A DNA stretch of 64,000 nucleotides, from the NCBI GenBank assembly GCA_963921275.4, contig OZ001293.3:2752001-2816000 (forward strand). Direction: 5' to 3'. Under the pieces are notes generated by a model. The model ran no database searches, had not been told where the DNA came from, and saw only the letters and a list, made by a program, of their open reading frames with translations. Positions 693-54,499 of this stretch are shown here, piece by piece. This stretch comes from an uncultured Hormoscilla sp. (GTDB lineage: Bacteria > Cyanobacteriota > Cyanobacteriia > Cyanobacteriales > Desertifilaceae). The position numbers were made by a program, and so were the translations under genes. Positions within the stretch are counted from its first letter, which is position 1; every line of letters starts with the position of its first letter.

Positions 693-891
693 GGCTCTGC
701 CAGGGAACGAGGGGAATGGACATGAATAAAGAATCAACAATTTTAACTGCTCAATTCTCAATTTTAACTGCTCAATTCTCAATAGCTTTACTGGGAAGTA
801 ATGGGAATAGAGATTGTCCCCTGCCCTGGTTTCGATGTCTTCGGGATGCAACCCAGGCAACCCCTCAGACATATTAAACTAAGCCAGAGAG

Positions 892-1960
892 TCACCTCTC
901 CGAGGAGTCTTCAGAACCGGACGATCTGCTTTTCACCTCAGGAGGCTCCTCAGTAACGTCACCCTTGTCATGGGTACGGCTACTACCATCGCTGGTAGTC
1001 TTCGTGTCGTGGCAGTGTTTGTGCAACAGTTGCAGGTTGTCCCACCTGTCTTTACCACCTAATGAAAGTGGCTTGATGTGGTCAACTTCCCACCTGTCGC
1101 TATTCTTAAACGTTAGTTTGCAATGTTGACATTTCCCCTTTTGTCTTTTGAGCAGCTTTGCTACTCTGTTGCCTATCTCTGGGTTCCTACCTAGTCTCGT
1201 GCTCCAATAGGTGAGGTTCCCGTCGTATGGGCTGGCTTTTCCTTTTACTTTCACATGTCTTACTATCTCTACACTTGCGTGTCGATATAGTTCTACATTC
1301 CCTTCTTTTGTTCGGCACCGGAATCGCCATTGTGCGTCTTGGTCTACTGACCAATATTTATTGGCTATCCAATGTCTTGATTTGTTAGGGTGTCTTCTCT
1401 TTGCCCAATTCCACAGGATTTTCCATAGGTAATTGTCCATTTCTGAGTAAACCTCTTTGCTTACCGCAGTCCTGTAGTAGTTGGCCCATCCTCGTATTAT
1501 CGGGTTGAGTTTGCTTATCAAGGCAGCTTGTGGAGCTGCTTTATGATTGCTTATTACTTCTGCCAACCTTTCTTTGTGCTTACCTATGGATTTATTACTG
1601 GGTTTGATAAGGGTTTTGAATCCTAGCGGTTTCCCGTGTCCGTTCTTGCCCGTGTAATATTTTCCTACCTCATATTGCCTTACATTGAACCCTAGGAAGT
1701 CAAACCCCGGGTTTTCGCCGTGTAGCGTATGAGTTATTTTTGTCTTTTCAGGCTTGAGTTCTAGTCCAATCCCTTTTAGCCACTCTGCTATAACCTCCTG
1801 CGCTTCTTCTATCTTTTCTCTTTTGTCATGCATCACCACAAAGTCATCAGCATATCTGACTACCGCCAGCTTTTGTTTTTCTCTTTGTGTTTCTGCTAGT
1901 TTCATTACCACTTCTTCTAGCCCATGTAGGGCTACATTCGCTAGTAATGGTGATATGACT
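892..1960 (-). pseudogene. 5'-truncated group II intron RT/maturase/HNH protein
   Basis: ISPLLANVAL, YADD, maturase LNPIIRGWANYY and HNH EVDHIKP...HKHCH; N-terminal RT domains missing. Confidence 0.9.
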
Positions 1961-2272
1961 TCCCGTTTTCGTTGAACAGGTCATTGGTAAAAATTTTCCG
2001 GGTTGCCAGCGAGCGATTTCGGTTAAAATATTGATAAATATGAATCGGTAATTTCGACAATTTGTGGGTTGGTTATATTGCACAAATTTTAGAAGTATTA
2101 GAATCTGTTGATAGCTCTGAAAAACTTGAGATTAACCAGTACCACCTTTGGAGCTCTTTATTAACAGGAAATCTATCAAACCCAGATTCTGTCGTTTGAG
2201 TAACATATGTGAGCATGGGAGGTAGAGCTTAAAACCCAGAGCTGACAAGGGTTTTATTTTTGGAGATGTCTA
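1961..2272 (+). mobile_element. Right-hand fragment of an IS5-like (DDE) element
   Basis: About 195 nt shared with 43122-43315; ends in TTTTGGAGATGTCTA, the inverted counterpart of TAGATATCTCCAAAA at 42405. Confidence 0.7.
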
Positions 2273-2486
2273 ATTGATGCCATCGCTACCGTAGGGAGTA
2301 TGCTGTCACTCCTGCACCTGGAGGGGTGGACTTTCACCACCATCATCTATAAGTTATCATGGCTAATGAAACCCTGTTAGCTGTCCTATAATTTGACTTG
2401 TATCATGTCAATCAATCTTAACGAATCACACCGCTGAAACACAATTCAGTTGCCCGCCATGAGATTCTACCACAATCTGGTAACTA

Positions 2487-10285: not shown

Positions 10286-11212
10286 GTGCGATTCGTTCCG
10301 GCATAAGCCAGTAGGTGAAAGTCGGGTCTGGCTCTATCAGCCAGATAACTCTGGTTATCATGGGGGTTAAATTCCCTTTCCCCAGGTACGGGGGTCGAGG
10401 GTACTACCGGTCGGAGGTGCTACGGAGCCACATCGCCGTGGTGCCTCCCGAGGACTTAAATGTAGGATAACTGGCAGCCTAAGCCGGTGACGCCGCTAGG
10501 AAAGATGCTAATGGTTAGAACAAGCGAACCTATGTAAACCTCGTTAACCAGAACCAGCGGAAGAAGGCTTATGCGCTTGCCCAAAAAGGGAAATGGTAGT
10601 TAGTATTAGCTCTTGCCTCTGGCTAATAACGTACTCAAAGAACTCCCGGGGTATAGTAGGAACCTAAAAGCATCGTGAAATGATACTAGGGAACGAAGTA
10701 ACCTCTCGTGAGCTGTCCCCATTTGGACAAGTTAGATGTAAAGCGCAAGCCACGAAGAAGAAGGATGTCCTAAGAAGCTAACGCCCAGGGTAATGCCTGT
10801 GGATATGCAGACGTAGGACGGATATGGTAAGACACCCTTGGGAAAAGTAACCTTAATGTCACAGAACTAGGGAGAAATTCCGAAAGTACGAATTTTGGAT
10901 TCAAATCTTAGCCAGGTAAAGTTCAGAGCCCTTACGAAAAGCGGAAAGCAGAATGGGGAAGATGTTAGTAAAGAGCGGCGAGTATGGTTTGCTGAACTAT
11001 CCTCCGCGAACCTTCCGCAGCTCAGTACTTAAACGGTCCAATAGGATTGACCATAAGGGGTAAAATTTCAAAGGGTAAGGGACAACGGGGGTAACCCCCA
11101 GTAATCCTACTGATGACAACAGCTTACCAACCAGTAGCCGTGTGCGGTTCCAGTCGCTCTTCAGGTTTCGCTCTTGGAGGGTTGGGGAGTGATTCCCAGC
11201 TCGACCCCGACC
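10286..11212 (+). mobile_element. ORF-less group II intron, copy A (927 nt)
   Basis: Starts GTGCGATTCG; DV-like TAGCCGTGTGCGG..GTCGC; DVI GGGTTGGGGAGTGATTCCCAGCTCGACCCCGACC; no ORF. Confidence 0.9.
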
Positions 11213-12250: not shown

Positions 12251-13177
12251 GTGCGATTCGTTCCGGCATAAGCCAGTAGGTGAAAGTCGGGTCTGGCTCT
12301 ATCAGCCAGATAACTCTGGTTATCATGGGGGTTAAATTCCCTTTCCCCAGGTACGGGGGTCGAGGGTACTACCGGTCGGAGGTGCTACGGAGCCACATCG
12401 CCGTGGTGCCTCCCGAGGACTTAAATGTAGGATAACTGGCAGCCTAAGCCGGTGACGCCGCTAGGAAAGATGCTAATGGTTAGAACAAGCGAACCTATGT
12501 AAACCTCGTTAACCAGAACCAGCGGAAGAAGGCTTATGCGCTTGCCCAAAAAGGGAAATGGTAGTTAGTATTAGCTCTTGCCTCTGGCTAATAACGTACT
12601 CAAAGAACTCCCGGGGTATAGTAGGAACCTAAAAGCATCGTGAAATGATACTAGGGAACGAAGTAACCTCTCGTGAGCTGTCCCCATTTGGACAAGTTAG
12701 ATGTAAAGCGCAAGCCACGAAGAAGAAGGATGTCCTAAGAAGCTAACGCCCAGGGTAATGCCTGTGGATATGCAGACGTAGGACGGATATGGTAAGACAC
12801 CCTTGGGAAAAGTAACCTTAATGTCACAGAACTAGGGAGAAATTCCGAAAGTACGAATTTTGGATTCAAATCTTAGCCAGGTAAAGTTCAGAGCCCTTAC
12901 GAAAAGCGGAAAGCAGAATGGGGAAGATGTTAGTAAAGAGCGGCGAGTATGGTTTGCTGAACTATCCTCCGCGAACCTTCCGCAGCTCAGTACTTAAACG
13001 GTCCAATAGGATTGACCATAAGCGGTAAAATTTCAAAGGGTAAGGGACAACGGGGGTAACCCCCAGTAATCCTACTGATGACAACAGCTTAACAACCAGT
13101 AGCCGTGTGCGGTTCCAGTCGCTCTTCAGGTTTCGCTCTTGGAGGGTTGGGGAGTGATTCCCAGCTCGACCCCGACC
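12251..13177 (+). mobile_element. ORF-less group II intron, copy B (927 nt)
   Basis: Only two differences from copy A spotted by eye. Confidence 0.9.
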
Positions 13178-39306: not shown

Positions 39307-40233
39307 GGTCGGGATCGAGCTGGGAATCACTCCCCAACCCTCCAAGAGCGAAACCTGAAGAGCGACTGGAACCGCACACGGCTACTGGTTGGTAAGCTGT
39401 TGTCATCAGTAGGATTACTGGGGGTTACCCCCGTTGTCCCTTACCCTTTGAAATTTTACCCCTTATGGTCAATCCTATTGGACCGTTTAAGTACTGAGCT
39501 GCGGAAGGTTCGCGGAGGATAGTTCAGCAAACCATACTCGCCGCTCTTTACTAACATCTTCCCCATTCTGCTTTCCGCTTTTCGTAAGGGCTCTGAACTT
39601 TACCTGGCTAAGATTTGAATCCAAAATTCGTACTTTCGGAATTTCTCCCTAGTTCTGTGACATTAAGGTTACTTTTCCCAAGGGTGTCTTACCATATCCG
39701 TCCTACGTCTGCATATCCACAGGCATTACCCTGGGCGTTAGCTTCTTAGGACATCCTTCTTCTTCGTGGCTTGCGCTTTACATCTAACTTGTCCAAATGG
39801 GGACAGCTCACGAGAGGTTACTTCGTTCCCTAGTATCATTTCACGATGCTTTTAGGTTCCTACTATACCCCGGGAGTTCTTTGAGTACGTTATTAGCCAG
39901 AGGCAAGAGCTAATACTAACTACCATTTCCCTTTTTGGGCAAGCGCATAAGCCTTCTTCCGCTGGTTCTGGTTAACGAGGTTTACATAGGTTCGCTTGTT
40001 CTAACCATTAGCATCTTTCCTAGCGGCGTCACCGGCTTAGGCTGCCAGTTATCCTACATTTAAGTCCTCGGGAGGCACCACGGCGATGTGGCTCCGTAGC
40101 ACCTCCGACCGGTAGTACCCTCGACCCCCGTACCTGGGGAAAGGGAATTTAACCCCCATGATAACCAGAGTTATCTGGCTGATAGAGCCAGACCCGACTT
40201 TCACCTACTGGCTTATGCCGGAACGAATCGCAC
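39307..40233 (-). mobile_element. ORF-less group II intron, copy C (927 nt)
   Basis: Reverse complement of copy A; one difference spotted, in DVI. Confidence 0.9.
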
Positions 40234-46259: not shown

Positions 46260-47184
46260 CTCGCTAGGCATCATCCGGTATGCTGACGATTTTGTCGTCA
46301 CATCCAAAGACAAAGAATCCTTAGAAACAGTGCTGATCCAGCTAAAGCAATGGATGTCTGAAAGAGGACTGGAAATCAGTACGGAGAAAAGCAAAATAGT
46401 TCACAGAAATGAGGGGTTTGACTTCCTGAGCTTCAACCTCCGCCATTACGGCGGTAAACTTTTAACCAAACCTCAAAAGTCCAAAGTCCTTGACTTTTGC
46501 AAAAAGATAAGTGACGAAGTTAAGGAAAAAGTTGATTGGGCTCAAGAAGCTATAATAAACGAATCCAATTCTCCGAGGTTTTGCTAACTCCTAGTGGGGT
46601 AAGCAAAGAAGCCTTCAGCTACATCGAGTATCGAGTGTGGCATCTTCCGTTGGGCTTTACGTCGGCATCCCAACAAATCAAAAACATGAGTCCTTAATCG
46701 TTACTTTGGAAAATGTAAGGGACGTAGCTATAACTTCGTAACTGATATAAAGGGTCGGGAAAAATTACGGGCTCTCTATGATATCAGTAGTACGTCAGGC
46801 ACATCAAAGTTAAAGGGACCGCAATGACGACCCAGCACTCCAAGAATACTGGTTCAAACGCAATATTAAAAACGGGCAAAATTACTGGTACTGGGCAAAA
46901 GGCTCAAAATATGAAAGGGTTGCCCAAGAACTGGAATTGTCCCATTGGCAATGAACCTCTATTCAACGGAGAAAAGATTGAGACTCACCACATAGTACCT
47001 GTAAAGCAAGGTGGTTCGGACGACACTGAAAACCTTGTCCATTTACACGCAGCGTGTCACAAACAGGTACATTCAAAATCCAAGAAAGAAAGGCTTGAAG
47101 TAAGGTCTTAGCCGTATGAGGGGATAACTCTCATGTACGGTTAGTCGGGGAGGGGAGAGAGGTGACTCTCAAACCTTACCCTCT
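46260..47184 (+). mobile_element. 3' part of a degraded RT-encoding group II intron
   Basis: IRYADDF, FDFLSF, HNH ETHHIVP..HAACH; DV TAGCCGTATGAG..CTCATGTACGGTT and DVI. Confidence 0.85.
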
Positions 47185-47252: not shown

Positions 47253-48284
47253 CTAATCGTCAGCAAAAATATAACGATACAGTTCACTCGGATCTGGTTC
47301 AGGACTCTCTAAGGCAAATTTTACCGCCTCATCAATCACAGCCTGAATCTGCTGATCGATCGCCTTCAGTTCTTCGGCAGAGGCCAGATTTTTTTCCGCC
47401 AGGTAAGCAGCAAAATTCTTAATCGGGTCCCGGGTAAGCCAGAATTCCTTCTCTTGCTGAGAACGCAACTCATCAGGATCTGCCAGAGAGTGACCCCGGA
47501 ATCTATAAGTCAAAGCTTCAATCAGGGTTGGCCCTTCCCCAGCACGGGCCCGGGAGACCGCCTCAAGGGCCGCTGTCCGCACCGCCAGCACATCCATACC
47601 ATCTACCTCCACTCCAGGCATGCCAAAAGCATGAGCCTTCTTGTAAATCTCCGGCACCGATGTCGCTCTGTCATGGGCCATCCCGATCGCCCATTTATTG
47701 TTCTCTACCACATAAATTATCGGCAGTTGCCAGAGAACCGCCATATTCAAACATTCAAAGAACTGACCATTATTGCAAGCACCATCGCCAAAAAAGCAAG
47801 CCGTCACTTGATCCGCCCCTGACTCGCCCATCGACTCTCGCCGGTACTTACTCTGAAACGCCGCACCAGTTGCCACAGGTATGCCCTCAGCCACAAAGGC
47901 ATAGCCCCCCAGCAGCCGGTGCTTTTCCGAGAACATATGCATAGAACCGCCACGACCTTGAGAGCAACCCGTGGCCTTACCAAACAACTCCGCCATCACC
48001 TCTTTGGCTGGCACGCCAGCACTCAAAGCATGGACATGGTCGCGATAGGTGCTACATACATAATCTTCATCAGGACGCAATGCCTTAATTACGCCGGTGG
48101 CGACCGCCTCTTGACCATTGTATAAGTGGACAAAGCCAAACATTTTGCCCCGGTAGTACATCTCAGCGCACTTGTCTTCAAACAAGCGTCCTAGTACCAT
48201 ATCTTCGTAGAGCCGTAAGCCTTCCGCTTTGGTAATTTGAACTCCATCCTTTGCGAATACCGGTAATGTGCGTTCGGAAATCAT
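47253..48284 (-). CDS. pdhA: Pyruvate dehydrogenase E1 alpha
   Basis: [32 protein letters not shown]; start taken as MISERT. Confidence 0.97.
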
Positions 48285-48352
48285 CAAGTTTGTCCTATAA
48301 TTACGGATCGTAACTGAACTAATTTTTCTTAAGATTAAACTAAGCCAGGGAG

Positions 48353-50978
48353 TCACCTCCCCGACTCGTCTTCAGAACCGGACGATCTGCTTTTCACCTC
48401 ATCCGGCTCCTCAGCAATGCCATCCTTGTCATGGACACGGCTACTACCATCATTGGCAGTCTTTACGTCGTGGCAGTGTTTGTGCAACAGTTGTAGGTTT
48501 TCCCACCGGTCCTTACCACCTAATGAAAGTGGTTTGATGTGGTCTATTTCCCATCGGTCGCTATCCTTGAATGTTAGTCCGCATTGTTGACATTTCCCTT
48601 TTTGCCGCTTGAGCAGCTTTGCTCCTCTATTGCTTAGCTCTGGGTTCCTGCCTAGTCTCGTGCTCCAATATGTGAGGTTCCCGTCGTATGGGCTTGCTGG
48701 TCCTTTGACCTTTATGTGCCTTACTATCTCTACACTCACGTGTCGATATAGCATTACTTTCCCTTCTTTCGTCTGACATCTGAATTGCCATTTTCTGTCT
48801 TGGTCAACTGACCAGTACTTTTTGGCTATCCAATGCTTTGACTTATTCGGGTGTCTCCTCTTTGCCCAATTCCACAGGATTTCCCATAGGTAGTTGTCCA
48901 TCTTTGAGTAAACTTCCTTGCTTACTCCCGTCCTGAAGTAGTTTTCCCATCCTCGTATTACCGGGTTGAGTTTGCTTATCAAGACAGCTTGTGGAACTGC
49001 TTTATGGCTGCTTACTGTTTCTGCCAGCCTTTTCTTGTGCTTATCTATGGACTTATTACTGGGTTTGATGAGGGTTTTGTAGCCTAGGGCTTCTCCATTA
49101 CTATTCCTGCCGCTCCTGTTCTTACTTACCTCATATTGCCTTATGTTGAATCCCAAGAAGTCAAATCCTGGTTCTTCTCCTTTTAGCGTGTGAGTTATTC
49201 TCGTCTTTTCCGGCTTTAGTTCTAGTCCAACCCCTTTTAGCCACTCTGTTATGACCACTCGCGCTTCTTCTATCTTTTCTTTGTCGTCATGCATTACCAC
49301 AAAATCATCAGCATATCTGACTACTGTCAGTTTCTTTTTTTCTCTTTGTGTTTCTGCGAGTTCCATTACTGCTTCTTCTAGTCCATGTAGGGCTATATTC
49401 GCTAATAATGGTGATATGACTCCTCCCGTACCCTCTTCGGTTGCATACCATTCTTTCTTATCTATCACCCCGGCTTTTAACCATGCCCGTATTTGTTTAC
49501 GGATTGGTGATGTAGTATTCAGTTTTTTCATTAACGCTTTATGGTCAATTTTATCGAAACACTTGGCTATATCAGCATCTGGATGGGGTCGAGCCGGGAA
49601 TCGCTTCCCGACCCTCCCTTGAGGAACCGGACTTGCGATTTTCACCGCATCCGGCTACTGGGTACTAGGCCCTTTTCATAGGTAGACTTAATAGGAATTA
49701 CTTCCGTTAGCCCTTGCCGCCTGTCTTTTCTTCCCTTTCCTGGTTTAGCGAGTGGTTGTTCTGATAACCGTTAGTATCACCATTTTCAAGTCAGTTTTAC
49801 CAGTTATCCATACCTTATCCTCCACTTGCGTTTCGGATTAGTTCCGTGGCTTTTTAGGATTACTCATTCCAGCAGCTTCCTAGTATCACCGACCCACGTC
49901 AGCGCTGGCTACCCAGCATCATCTACATTACTGTAGATGTTATCCCAGGAATTACCCCGGGCATTCGCTTCTTGGGCCATCCCTCCCCCCGTGGCTTGCG
50001 CTTAACATCTAACTTGTCCTGATGGACAGCACACGAGAGGTTACTTCGTTCCCTAACAACATTTCGCGATACCTTTAGGTCCACACTATACCCCGGGAGC
50101 TATTTGAGTACTATATTAGCCAGAGTCTAAAACTAATACTAGCTACCATTTCCTTTTTAGGCCAGCGCATATAGCCTTATTTCGCTGGTTCCTTATAACG
50201 AGGCTTGCACATGTTTGCCTGCTCTAACCTTGGATATCTTTCCTAGCGGCGTCACCGGCTTAGGCTGCCAGTTATCCTACATTTGAGTCCTCGCTTAGCA
50301 CCACGATGATGTCGCTTCGTAGCACCGAGGACCGGTGTCACCCCCGTACCTGGGGGGAGGGGAATTTAACCCCCATGCGGTCAGAGTTCCCGGCTAATGA
50401 AACCGGGCTAGCGTTCCGTGTTTGACCACGTTAGGCTAGAACGAATCGCACAATACCCATTTAGGTTTCGTTTTGATACTGAGAAAGATTGCTTCGATTG
50501 CATCATGACATCCTCTTCCCGGTCTAAATCCGTAGGAGTTTCCTTCCATATACGCTTCCCATTCCGGTTCTAGCGCAATTTTCAGTAACCCCTGTGTCGC
50601 ACGGTCGTGCATTGTCGGTATTCCTAATGGACGCTTTTCGTCTCTTCCTGGCTTGGGTATCCACACTCGTCGTGCGGGTTTGGCCTTGTTTGAGATTTCT
50701 ATTTGTCCTACCAGTTCCATTCTTTGTTTTGGGGTCAGTGATTTCACACCGTCCACACCTGCTGTCTTCTTTCCCTGGTTGTCCTGTGTTACCTGTCGAA
50801 CCGCTAGACTTTTGGCTGCCCGGGATTTTACCAGTAACCTCTGGAGCCTGCGAACTGTCCGCTTATCACCACGTTGTGCCGCTCTGTAAATTCTCAGAAG
50901 CAACTTAAAGATTATCCTCTCTAGTTTTTTCCAAGGGATATCCTTCCATTCATTCATCGATTTTGACATCGTGCTCAT
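48353..50978 (-). CDS. ltrA: Intron-encoded RT/maturase/HNH, join(50978..50452, 49580..48353); possibly defective
   Basis: Removing the inner intron gives [19 protein letters not shown] present; PQ missing from GTPQGG. Confidence 0.85.
49581..50451 (-). mobile_element. ORF-less group II intron (inner, 871 nt)
   Basis: GTGCGATTCG start, canonical DV TAGCCGGATGCGGTGAAAATCGCAAGTCCGGTT; homologous to copies A-C. Confidence 0.92.
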
Positions 50979-52024
50979 GACGTTTTCATTGCTAGTTGCA
51001 ACTCTACTTTTGACATTACCGTGAGGGCGTCAGCTTATCCTACCCATTACGGTAGGCTTTTGCTTCTCCGCGAAATCTTTCCCAGATATGACCTGCCCTA
51101 ATGGAGGGCAGACGTTGCGCCTTTGGTGGCTACTCTACCTATCGACCGGTGATAGAGAGTCATATCTGGTTTACTTCGTTCCTACAGACGATTGATTGTA
51201 GTTTTAGATGGATTCCCTACGCCGGGTTTATTGTCAGTGCTTACTGGTCGGGACTATAACCGCCAGCGACCTATATCCTTACCCTTTTGGGCCAGTGTAT
51301 CAGCCTTATTACACTGGTTCTGATTAACGGCGCTACAAATCTTTGCTTACGCTCATCATGACTACTTGCTCGACGATAACCGGTTTAGGCTACCAGTTAG
51401 AGCGCCTTTTATTCCCACTTTACGGATTGATGCCATCTCTACCGTAGGGAATATGCTGTCACTCCTGCACCTGGAGGGGTGGATTTTCACCACCATCATC
51501 TGTAAGTTGTCTATGCTAATGAAACCTAGCTAGTGGTCTCCTACCTGGTTTTCACCGGTAGTTTACACTAAACGAATCGCACATAGCCCCATCAGTCAAG
51601 GGTCCTGTTGTCCTTCAAGTTTGAGCTACAATGATATATGCCTATTTATGGCATATATTATCAATAAACAACAATCAACCATCTTCAACCCCTATCATCC
51701 GGACTTTGTATAACGCTATGAATGTCCTTTATATCCATGAAAAAAATCAGATTATAATATCAATTTATAACCCCCTGATGATATAATTAGAGAGGAATGC
51801 CAAAAATTATAATCGATCGGGACTGCTGTGGGTGGGAAATTTCGTTATATTAGATGATAAAAGGGAAAAGGGTTAGGGAGTTGGTGCGTACCAGGCCGGG
51901 AGACACAGCGTACCAGATCCACCAGTGCTCAATGTCAACTAACCACTGACAACTGATAACTAACCACTGACAACTGACCAATAACAGCCTTAAATTAGTG
52001 AATTGCTGCTGAGGGAGACGACTG

Positions 52025-54499
52025 GTGAGAATTCCGCTCGATTACTACCGGATTCTAGGCTTGCCGATACAGGCGACTGTCGAACAGTTGGAGATGTATC
52101 ATCGCGATCGGACGATGCAACTGCCCCGGCGGGAGTATTCGGAGATCGCGATAGACTCCCGTAAACAGCTGTTAGATCAAGCCTATGGGGTGCTCTCGGA
52201 CTCCGACCAGCGTCGCACCTATGATGCGAATCTAGATGCTGCCCTGGCTGCGCCGGACCCGAAAATAGACGGAACCACCAGTGTAGAGGCAAAGGAGAAG
52301 CATCACAGTCCCAGCATAGAGATTTCAGAGGAGCAATTAGTCGGGGCCTTGCTGATCCTGTTAGAACTAGGGGAGTATGAACTGGTATTGCAGTTGGGAC
52401 GTCCTTACCTAAGCAGCAGCAAGATAAGTGCAGAAAAAGACCCCTCAGGGGCATCACAACTGGAACGATCGGATACGGTACTCACGATCGCTCACGCCTG
52501 TCTGGAACTAGGTCGCGAACAGTGGCAGCAAGGAAATTACACAACGGCAGCGGAATATCTGGAAACTGGTCAAAACTTACTGTTGAGCGAAGGATTATTC
52601 CCGACTGTGCGGGGGGAAATTGCGGCAGATCTCTACAAACTGCGTCCTTACCGCATCCTGGAATTACTGGCCCAATCAGAAGAAAAAACTTCTAGTACAC
52701 CGGCGTCGCGCAGTGGGCGACGCCAAGGGGTACAAATGCTGCGGGATATGCTCGAAGAGAGGGGCGGCATTGATGGCACGGGGGATGACGGTTCCGGGTT
52801 AGGAATTGATGACTTTCTGCGCTTTGTCCAGCAGCTGCGGGGCTACATGACCTCTGAAGAACAACAGACTTTGTTTGAGTCTGAAGCCCTGCGCCCTTCA
52901 GCCGTGGCGACTTACCTGGCTGTATATGCTCTGCTGGTCCGGGGATTTGCCCAACATAAACCGGCCCTGATTAACCGTGCTAAACGGATGCTGATGCGCT
53001 TGGGTAACCGCCAGGATGTTCATCTAGAACAAGCCGTGTGCGCCCTGCTGCTGGGTCAGACTTCCGAAGCAAGTAGGGCCCTAGAACTGAGCCAGGAATA
53101 CGAACAGATCGCCTTTATCCGAGAACATTCTCAGGGTGCCCCAGACCTGTTGCCAGGATTATGTCTGTACGGCGAGCGCTGGCTCCACGAAGAAGTGTTT
53201 ACCCACTTCCAAGACTTGCAGAAAGGCAGCACAACCCTGAAAGATTACTTCGCTGATCAGCAAGTGCAATCATATTTGGAAGCACTCCCTCAGGAAATAA
53301 ACAACTCCAGTGAGTGGACAGTGGTGCAACACCAGCAGATATCTCAAAGATCGGCTTCGATGTCTCTGGGGAGCGCTACTCGCACTACCCCAGAGACATC
53401 GACCTCAGAGCGACTAGCGCCTGCACCCCCCGGGGCTGTGTCTCCCGACCCTAGGAGCACTACCCAGGAGACACAGGAGCGCTATTTTCGCGACGTTCCC
53501 AGGCGGAGCCGTAGGAACGAGGGGGGGGCGATGGGCGAGGGGCAGTGCGAGCAGCGCGCCCCGAGTGCATCGAAGCAGTCCGTCCGTTGGGTTGAAAATG
53601 GGGGGGAGATAACAGATCCAGTTGGTGCCCCTACCCTGGTGGCACAAACCCAGTCAAGGACTACCCTGTCTCCGGAAGCTGAGGCAACGGCCGTTGCCAT
53701 CGCTCGCCCAAAAACGGCTCCTGCTGCGTCCCCCGGTGCTGCGTCTCCTGGGAGCGCTACTCGCACAAAAGAGGAGACGCAGCGCGCTACTCGCACTACC
53801 CGGGGGACGCAGAGGGTGGGTTCGAGATTGTCACCAGGACGCTCACATGCTATGCCAACTCTGAGAGATGCAAAGCAGCCAGTAGTCAAGACTGAGGGAG
53901 AGTTTTATTCGCCTAGGTTCCGTATGCTGTTACTGGCAGCTGTGGGAATTGTTAGTCTCCTGCTGCTGTGGTTTGTGGTGGGTTGGTTGCTTAGACTGAT
54001 ATTATCACGACAACCGGTACTGGAAGGGGAGCAGCTGCAAGTGCGGCTCGATCGGCCTCCTATACAGATTCCAGACCCCAATACAAATACCCGGGTAACA
54101 ACCGGTCCCATAAACAAATCAATGGCGGAGCAGGCGATCGACAGCTGGTTAACCACGAAAAGACAAGTCTTTGGTCCTAACCATAGCATCGATCGGTTAG
54201 AGCAAATATTGGTGGAACCAGCCCTGGGAGAGCAGCGGCGACGGGCGCTGGTGGCACGGCAAGAAAACTGGTACGGTCAGTACCAGCACAGAGTGACGGT
54301 GGAGAAGGTTTCCTTGATGTCAAGCGATCGCGATCGGGCTATAGTGGAAGCAATTGTCAGCGAAAAAGCAGACTTTTTTGTAAATGGTCAGTTTGACCGG
54401 GCTTCTTCGTACTTCAATCCCAATTTGCGGCTGCGCTATGAGTTAATAAACCAAGCTGGTCAGTGGCGAATTCAGAATATTATCCTTGTAAACAACTAG
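52025..54499 (+). CDS. ftn2: Cell division protein Ftn2/ARC6
   Basis: RIPLDYYRILG J-like domain, KLRPYRILELL, DLLPGLC, TM helix and C-terminal domain. Confidence 0.95.
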   Translation: MRIPLDYYRILGLPIQATVEQLEMYHRDRTMQLPRREYSEIAIDSRKQLLDQAYGVLSDSDQRRTYDANLDAALAAPDPKIDGTTSVEAKEKHHSPSIEISEEQLVGALLILLELGEYELVLQLGRPYLSSSKISAEKDPSGASQLERSDTVLTIAHACLELGREQWQQGNYTTAAEYLETGQNLLLSEGLFPTVRGEIAADLYKLRPYRILELLAQSEEKTSSTPASRSGRRQGVQMLRDMLEERGGIDGTGDDGSGLGIDDFLRFVQQLRGYMTSEEQQTLFESEALRPSAVATYLAVYALLVRGFAQHKPALINRAKRMLMRLGNRQDVHLEQAVCALLLGQTSEASRALELSQEYEQIAFIREHSQGAPDLLPGLCLYGERWLHEEVFTHFQDLQKGSTTLKDYFADQQVQSYLEALPQEINNSSEWTVVQHQQISQRSASMSLGSATRTTPETSTSERLAPAPPGAVSPDPRSTTQETQERYFRDVPRRSRRNEGGAMGEGQCEQRAPSASKQSVRWVENGGEITDPVGAPTLVAQTQSRTTLSPEAEATAVAIARPKTAPAASPGAASPGSATRTKEETQRATRTTRGTQRVGSRLSPGRSHAMPTLRDAKQPVVKTEGEFYSPRFRMLLLAAVGIVSLLLLWFVVGWLLRLILSRQPVLEGEQLQVRLDRPPIQIPDPNTNTRVTTGPINKSMAEQAIDSWLTTKRQVFGPNHSIDRLEQILVEPALGEQRRRALVARQENWYGQYQHRVTVEKVSLMSSDRDRAIVEAIVSEKADFFVNGQFDRASSYFNPNLRLRYELINQAGQWRIQNIILVNN

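Follow-up and report, generated by a model that had tools for sequence, protein, structure and literature searches.

Bacterial twintrons have been described in Thermosynechococcus (PMC2882425) and Trichodesmium (PMC4649490). Those of T. elongatus are designated TeI4a-e::TeI3a-e (Mohr, Ghanem and Lambowitz 2010, PMC2882425), and for the Tery_4732 twintron of Trichodesmium erythraeum sequential splicing has been reported in vivo (Pfreundt and Hess 2015, PMC4649490). The published record for group II intron load is held by Arthrospira platensis, with a maximum of 101 introns in one genome in the survey of 1,790 representative bacterial genomes by Miura et al. 2022 (PMC8919778), whose pipeline is described there as missing the outer introns of twintrons. 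Here a twintron was analysed that lies just upstream of pdhA, the gene for pyruvate dehydrogenase E1 alpha, in a 64,000-nt stretch of DNA (the window) from an uncultured Hormoscilla sp. (contig OZ001293.3, positions 2,752,001 to 2,816,000). Its architecture is already known from Thermosynechococcus, and it is itself a further example; the original prediction, made from the sequence of this locus, was correct in stating that bacterial twintrons are described in both genera.

The twintron occupies 3249 nt of the minus strand (51582-48334) and consists of a 2378-nt outer and an 871-nt inner group II intron. The outer intron is of the reverse transcriptase (RT)/maturase/HNH type and its RT gene is interrupted by the inner one. 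It starts with GUGCG at 51582 and ends with ...UUUAAU at 48334 (...GGCUUAGUUUAAU). Its 5' segment (50452-51582, minus strand, 1131 nt) carries GUGCG, domains 1 to 3, the start of domain 4 and the N-terminus of its intron-encoded protein (IEP; ATG at 50978, RVT_N and the first RT motifs). The 3' segment (48334-49580, minus strand, 1247 nt) carries the rest of the RT, the maturase (GIIM) and HNH domains, and domains 5 and 6, with the IEP stop codon at 48353-48355. Domain 6 and the 3' end span 48334-48372 (minus strand), and a candidate branch A, followed by 7 nt, can be read from the sequence.

Both outer borders are fixed by empty sites. The genome that holds the window (G000, 7.03 Mb) was compared with 30 relatives, which were searched with the pdhA 5' region. 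In all four genomes of the same genus (G001-G004), the equivalent of window position 51583 is joined directly to that of 48333. The sequence at these empty sites is ...TTGACTGATGGGGC(T/G)AT followed by CTTAAGAAAAATTAG..., with a 2-nt ambiguity at the junction, since AT is present at both ends. As the site is uninterrupted in these four genomes, all 3249 nt are specific to the G000 lineage.

Exon-binding site 1 of the outer intron (EBS1, AUAGUC, 51252-51257, minus strand) forms five Watson-Crick pairs and one G-U pair with intron-binding site 1 (IBS1, GGCUAU), the last 6 nt of the 5' flank (51583-51588, minus strand). In paralogues, changes in the EBS1 column are matched by changes in the 5' flank (for example, TAATAT/GTATTA, AGTTGA/TCAACT and CCCAAG/CTTGGG). 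The pairing and its covariation therefore identify EBS1 and show that the element was inserted by reverse splicing. A possible EBS2, UAGUCA, pairs at six of six positions with UGACUG at this site; it has no covariation in paralogues and is kept as a candidate only. The family to which the outer intron belongs has about 35 full-length members in G000, 74 to 87% identical to it. The outer intron itself is present once, with at most 86.8% full-length identity to any paralogue and at most 82% to anything in the sister genomes.

The inner intron (49581-50451, minus strand, 871 nt; GUGCG...CCCCAUCC) has no open reading frame (ORF) of note, the longest being 53 aa, and no similarity to RTs. It is identical to the genome-wide master sequence, and its 3' end at 49581 reads ...GACCCCAUCC (...CAUCC). 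The Rfam model RF00029 scores 44.4 bits at 49583-49659, above its gathering score of 40. The model stops 2 nt short of the 3' end, which was placed from the restored host frame and the constant ends of the copies. Domain 5 of the inner intron (49624-49657, minus strand) is canonical by Rfam and by folding, with the AGC triad, a 2-nt bulge and a GAAA loop.

When 50451-49581 was removed in silico, joining 50452 to 49580, a single open frame of 584 aa resulted, in register across the joint with uninterrupted paralogues and with the RT motif restored. The two parts of the IEP are found in the ORFs at 50978-50436 and 49645-48353. Pfam finds RVT_N and RVT_1 (profile positions 1-60) on the 5' side of the inner intron, and RVT_1 (73-205), GIIM and HNH on its 3' side. 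The inner intron lies wholly within the outer one, on the same strand, and its removal restores the outer RT frame, which is what defines a twintron. The borders that the original prediction gave for the twintron and its two introns all stand, on the evidence of the empty sites, the copies and the restored frame, and an ORF-less intron does interrupt the host RT gene as it had said.

The restored host IEP lacks the 'PQ' of the TPQGG motif that intact paralogues have. Its closest solved structure is PDB 6me0 chain C (E = 1.2e-67), which we take to be the T. elongatus TeI4h ribonucleoprotein. There are 15 uninterrupted full-length IEP frames in G000, and the five closest subfamily paralogues that were examined all have broken frames. 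Selection on the host IEP was also considered. Branch-specific synonymous to non-synonymous changes (27:32) exceed the neutral expectation (synonymous fraction 0.215), but broken paralogues behave alike (19:15, 29:36 and 24:30), so that the counts are uninformative.

It is highly improbable that the locus is an assembly artefact, with a repeat misplaced and no real twintron present. The inner intron, as a 139-copy exact repeat, is of the kind that assemblers misplace. Against this, the outer intron is unique, and at the junction between inner and outer intron the RT frame is restored with single-nucleotide precision. In three runs, short-read contigs also cross both borders between flank and outer intron with no differences (47253-48362 and 51553-52600), entering the outer intron by only 29 to 30 nt, which is below the 31-nt bridging rule, and they may derive from the source sample.

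How well the inner intron fits its target bears on whether it could be spliced accurately. Copies at 118 distinct sites give the target rule AACCUU-N3-G(A/G)GUCU|A, with A at +1 in 86 of the 118. The rule is complementary to the inner EBS1, AGACUC (50123-50128, minus strand), which lies in a 9-nt hairpin loop of the minimum free energy (MFE) fold and is complementary to the consensus IBS1 GAGUCU. At the present site the target is GGUAUU|A, and EBS1 makes just two Watson-Crick and two G-U pairs with it, so the caveat first raised about this imperfect pairing was well placed. Pairing this poor or worse occurs at only four of the 118 sites. Shifting the register by one base (GGGUAU) improves the pairing and places an IBS2-like AACCUA at the consensus spacing. 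From these pairings, accurate 5' splice-site choice by the inner intron at this site appears doubtful.

The gene downstream of the twintron, pdhA (47253-48284, minus strand, 343 aa), matches Pfam E1_dh at 1.4e-88 and is single-copy in G000 (one tblastn match genome-wide). Its ATG is at 48284, and 49 nt (48333-48285) separate this from the outer intron. The divergent gene on the other side (52025-54499, plus strand, 824 aa) encodes Ftn2/ZipN, an ARC6-like protein with an N-terminal DnaJ domain (Pfam DnaJ, ARC6, Arm_PDR and ARC6-like_IMS). Pfam and the coordinates agree with the placement originally given, on the pdhA strand, 49 nt before the ATG and between pdhA and ftn2.

Comparison of the empty sites suggests what the twintron has interrupted. 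All of them contain TTGACT-N17-AAAAAT, which ends 37 nt before the pdhA ATG, with an AGGA motif in between. In the window the -35-like hexamer TTGACT (51594-51599, minus strand) and the -10-like hexamer AAAAAT (48322-48327, minus strand) are on opposite sides of the twintron, the insertion point being 11 nt after the former and 6 nt before the latter. TTGACT overlaps the candidate IBS2 of the outer intron (UGACUG, 51598-51593). AGGA, a Shine-Dalgarno-like motif (48293-48296, minus strand), is conserved in the same-genus genomes.

The two hexamers, to which a presumed promoter role is assigned from their conservation, are retained beyond the genus. A pattern search over 12 family-level loci found, in 10 of them, TTGACN at -65/-66 relative to the ATG with [A/T]AnnnT 16 to 19 nt further on. 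Four of the 10 belong to genus g1 and six to genus g3, whose spacers are otherwise unalignable. Genus g3 has the form TTGAC(T/G)-N18-AACAAT at the same distance from the ATG. Within genus g1 there are three variable positions between the boxes, all in the spacer and none in the hexamers. When G001 is aligned with G000, similarity on the pdhA side starts at TTGACT and is lost just upstream, while the ftn2-proximal half of the intergenic spacer can again be aligned. Another genome of the same order (G015) has an ftn2-pdhA spacer of just 80 nt, with TATATT 38 nt before the ATG. Because that spacer is so short, the pdhA promoter of G015 must be near the gene.

From this comparative sequence evidence, the twintron is somewhat more likely to split the -35/-10 core promoter of pdhA than to sit in a spliced 5' untranslated region (5' UTR). 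The ancestral transcription start site of pdhA would then likely lie within 48285-48333, the interval in which, according to the original prediction, a start site together with a lack of spliced products would speak against its proposal. That proposal was that, if the pdhA promoter lies beyond 51582, pdhA is transcribed through, or depends on sequential splicing of, 3.2 kb of intron. It is not supported, though not refuted, as a conserved -35/-10-like pair straddles the insertion.

Several observations weigh against a split promoter. AAAAAT and AACAAT are weak -10 boxes, without the first T of TAnnnT, and both g2 loci among the 12 family-level loci are without the TTGACN-[A/T]AnnnT motif. Selection should act strongly against a fixed insertion that severs the promoter of a gene both essential and single-copy. 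As read from the sequence, the last 30 nt of the outer intron contain no evident substitute for the -35 box. A simple promoter scan gave five sites, compared with 7.0 ± 2.5 expected in shuffles, and nothing was drawn from it. Among 15 of 50 contig joints in the DNA runs, there was no 48333/51583 empty-site joint. As no empty-site allele occurs among the joints listed, heteroplasmy cannot be invoked. The sense orientation of the twintron and its intact EBS1/IBS1 pairing would fit a spliceable, tolerated leader intron as well. Separately, a scan for terminators gave six sites, compared with 5.0 in shuffles, and again nothing was drawn.

Such a leader intron is the substance of the 5'-UTR explanation, which we regard as possible but hold only tentatively. 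It places the pdhA promoter upstream of 51582, so that pdhA is transcribed through the twintron and the two introns are spliced sequentially, inner then outer, with maturase supplied in cis after the inner intron is spliced or in trans. Sequential twintron splicing has, as reported, a cyanobacterial precedent (PMC4649490). The element is on the same strand as pdhA, and pdhA is single-copy yet the insertion has been retained, with no empty-site joint among those listed. A promoter could lie within the 441 nt of upstream intergenic DNA; however, in G001 there is no conserved block between the TTGACN-N17/18-AAnAAT motif and the ftn2-proximal half of the spacer, and that motif itself straddles the insertion point. 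The outer EBS1/IBS1 pairing is intact, but domain 5 of the outer intron, described below, is without the canonical bulge and GNRA loop. The pairing of the inner intron is among the four worst of its 118 sites, which makes accurate inner splicing doubtful. Finally, removal of the inner intron leaves the host IEP with a fully open frame, whereas those of the five closest paralogues examined are broken; the open frame is nevertheless not special evidence, as broken paralogues show similar synonymous and non-synonymous counts.

A promoter inside the twintron, for example one that also serves the IEP, could instead drive pdhA, the element forming a long unspliced leader wherever the ancestral promoter was. 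We consider this rather unlikely. The IEP frame ends just 70 nt before the pdhA ATG, and pdhA retains its own AGGA ribosome-binding site. There are also consensus-like minus-strand sites at 50854-50825 (TTCGCA-18-TAAAAT with TG) and 49575-49548, but such sites are no commoner than in shuffled sequence. An internal promoter overlaps with the split-promoter reading and does not exclude it.

The landing site was most likely the 17-nt spacer between TTGACT and AAAAAT, not a 5' UTR. The twintron would then be a tolerated promoter-disrupting insertion, and not an intron that the pdhA mRNA must remove. Transcription of pdhA would now have to begin at the orphaned -10 box, within the twintron or, with read-through, further upstream. 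The pdhA coding sequence is intact and has its own ribosome-binding site, and splicing is not needed to decode it. If the introns do splice, this is probably achieved in trans by one of the 15 intact paralogous IEPs, like the 'driver' IEPs of Thermosynechococcus.

Other features were seen around pdhA. A different, 5'-truncated group II intron (46264-47184, plus strand) converges on pdhA and ends 69 nt from its stop codon; pdhA is thus flanked by introns on both sides. The RT/HNH frames of this intron are broken and only 29 to 31% identical to the host-family IEP, and its domains 5 and 6 score 45.8 bits with RF00029 at 47107-47184. The ftn2-pdhA spacer of G004 (L028, G004:C47) contains some 1.2 kb of additional DNA at a different point, between the equivalents of 51697 and 51691, and the twintron site is still empty. 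In the window, this spacer carries a palindrome (ATATGCC-N7-GGCATAT; 51640-51665, minus strand), which is conserved in G002-G004 and not in G001 and which may be a regulator binding site.

The outer intron has a variant domain 5 (48375-48409, minus strand, 35 nt; GAGCCGGAUGAGGUGAAAAGCAGAUCGUCCGGUUC), placed by Rfam, MFE folding and alignment of copies. On domains 5 and 6, RF00029 scores 28.8 bits at 48334-48411, below the cut-off of 40, compared with 57 to 60 bits for canonical paralogues. RF04357 (D5) scores 37.3 bits at 48371-48412 at a relaxed threshold. The canonical form, about 34 nt with the AGC triad, a 2-nt bulge and a GNRA loop, is not what the outer intron has. In its MFE fold, a 12-bp stem leads through a 2x2 internal loop and a further 2 bp to a 5-nt loop. 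The AGC triad is kept, and neither the 2-nt bulge nor the GNRA loop of a folded canonical paralogue is present. To our knowledge, the bulge and the GNRA tetraloop of domain 5 are held to be universal.

This variant is not confined to the pdhA locus. It occurs in about 20 of the 45 family 3' ends listed, all at different sites (for example, C1:1110579 and 3302983), and 11 genomic strings match the domain 5 of the outer intron exactly. At least five full-length carriers have distinct EBS1 sequences, of which four match their own 5' flank well and one poorly. In 11 variant copies, mean pairwise identity is highest in domain 5 (93.7%), compared with 86.5% in domain 6 and 74.5 to 84.2% upstream. 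From this pattern we infer that the variant domain 5 has probably been retained under constraint in a mobile lineage. In this way the locus reveals an apparently mobile subfamily whose non-canonical domain 5 is conserved. Were the variant catalytic, or routinely complemented in trans in a cell with hundreds of intron RNAs, the rule for the group II/spliceosomal active site would have a natural exception, with single-copy pdhA expressed across or beside such an element in a genome with possibly the largest prokaryotic group II burst; this is an attractive but doubtful prospect.

Two fragments of host-family introns lie elsewhere in the window. One (873-1966, minus strand) is a 3' fragment of 84.7% identity, in which the variant domain 5 is further mutated, and the other (2273-2373, minus strand) is a 100-nt 5' fragment.

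The inner intron is evidently active in G000 and belongs to a genome-wide burst. There are 139 full-length copies of at least 99% identity in G000 (134 of them rounding to 100%), which together make up about 121 kb. Their flanks differ (for example, C1:1221-2091), and the intron ends are fixed thereby. The copies are at 121 distinct sites, three of which were dropped from the target rule as their upstream flank is the intron's own 3' end in tandem copies. Head-to-tail arrays include a double (C1:824934-826675) and a triple (C1:5447656-5450268), and at least five self-insertions occur after intron position 768 (C1:1326652, 4741955, 5180973, 6029677 and 6410359). The 139 near-identical copies, the relaxed target rule, the tandem arrays and the self-insertions together mark a hyperactive retrotransposition system of natural origin. 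None of the four sister genomes has the 871-nt intron at 99% identity or above; the best match there is 92%, with two full copies in G004. No ORF-containing parent or driver of the inner intron was identified among 43 diverged relatives of its 5' part, 37 of which are without a strict domain 5 within 3.5 kb.

G000 is also rich in other group II introns. A strict domain-5 pattern occurs 334 times in G000, compared with once in a shuffled chromosome; 146 of these strings are the inner intron's domain 5 and 88 are of a second type. A first look with RF00029 gave 867 candidates, and nearly all of the 150 that were scored are above the cut-off. Only eight of the 139 inner copies abut host-family sequence, and the pdhA twintron is one of a few nested cases in the genome.

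A second time, and independently, the 871-nt intron has entered the RT gene of a host-family paralogue, a diverged one (C1:5145275-5146145, minus strand). The insertion point there is 1 nt upstream of that in the window, the IBS1 is good (GGGUCU), and the joined flanks would read through an in-frame TGA. Contigs of run X5 (organism B) have the inner intron at a different site; they include neither pdhA nor ftn2 and so gave no empty site. A repeat of about 447 nt has three copies in the window (10359-10805, plus; 12324-12770, plus; 39714-40160, minus) and about 30 genome-wide. Its identity to domain 1 of the inner intron (nt 75-511) is 82%, and most copies are without a strict domain 5 within 3.5 kb downstream. 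These repeats may be intron-derived fragments or a miniature element.

Two successive retro-insertions would account for the twintron. The outer intron probably came first and the inner one recently, since the inner intron is 100% identical to most of its 138 sisters while the outer one has diverged. In the first step, in the G000 lineage only, an RT-maturase-HNH intron of chloroplast-like (CL)/IIB type would have reverse-spliced upstream of pdhA, guided by its EBS1 AUAGUC to GGCUAU. Much later, the bursting ORF-less intron would have entered the RT gene of this host at a poorly matching site, interrupting the host's own maturase.

The closest parallel is with TeI4::TeI3 as described for T. 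elongatus (PMC2882425). There, as here, the IEP ORF of an ORF-containing intron is host to an ORF-less intron of the same broad class (CL/IIB-type), and the inner copies are identical while the outer ones have diverged, the mark of recent independent insertions. In that account, as in G000, ORF-less introns, which depend for their mobility on 'driver' IEPs acting in trans, outnumber ORF-containing ones, and most copies are intergenic (PMC2882425). The position of the inner intron differs. In T. elongatus it is reported between the first two ATGs, the IEP still being made from the second (PMC2882425), whereas here it cuts the RT domain between RVT_1 positions 60 and 73. Because of this, there can be no active IEP from the pdhA twintron unless the inner intron is spliced. 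The poor inner target match, the non-canonical outer domain 5 and the position beside pdhA are further differences. The scale differs too, with 28 introns and 17 ORF-less copies given for T. elongatus (PMC2882425), whereas in G000 one ORF-less intron has 139 near-identical copies and the domain-5 motifs number at least 334.

In load, G000 may be compared with A. platensis, likewise a filamentous cyanobacterium described as having very many CL-type and ORF-less group II introns (PMC8919778). The 139 full copies and 334 domain-5 strings of G000 stand against 101 introns in that survey (PMC8919778), an approximate comparison as the counting methods differ. In literature listings and abstracts, no prokaryotic genome was found reported with more than 101 group II introns, and the intron load of G000 is well above the highest published count found. 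As a twintron alone the element is of modest interest; more interest attaches to two other leads, the genome-wide burst and the conserved variant of domain 5.

For pdhA, the same listings and abstracts gave no report of a group II intron in its promoter or leader. The insertion is lineage-specific and dated, lies beside an essential single-copy gene, and has sisters that keep the empty site. It is thus a natural experiment on how bacteria tolerate a 3.2-kb retroelement in a promoter or leader. The Tery_4732 twintron of T. erythraeum is similar in having a conserved host gene and a high intron load (PMC4649490). That twintron, however, is reported to interrupt coding sequence, so that splicing is required (PMC4649490), whereas here the twintron leaves the pdhA coding sequence intact, being placed 49 nt before its start codon and probably in the promoter.

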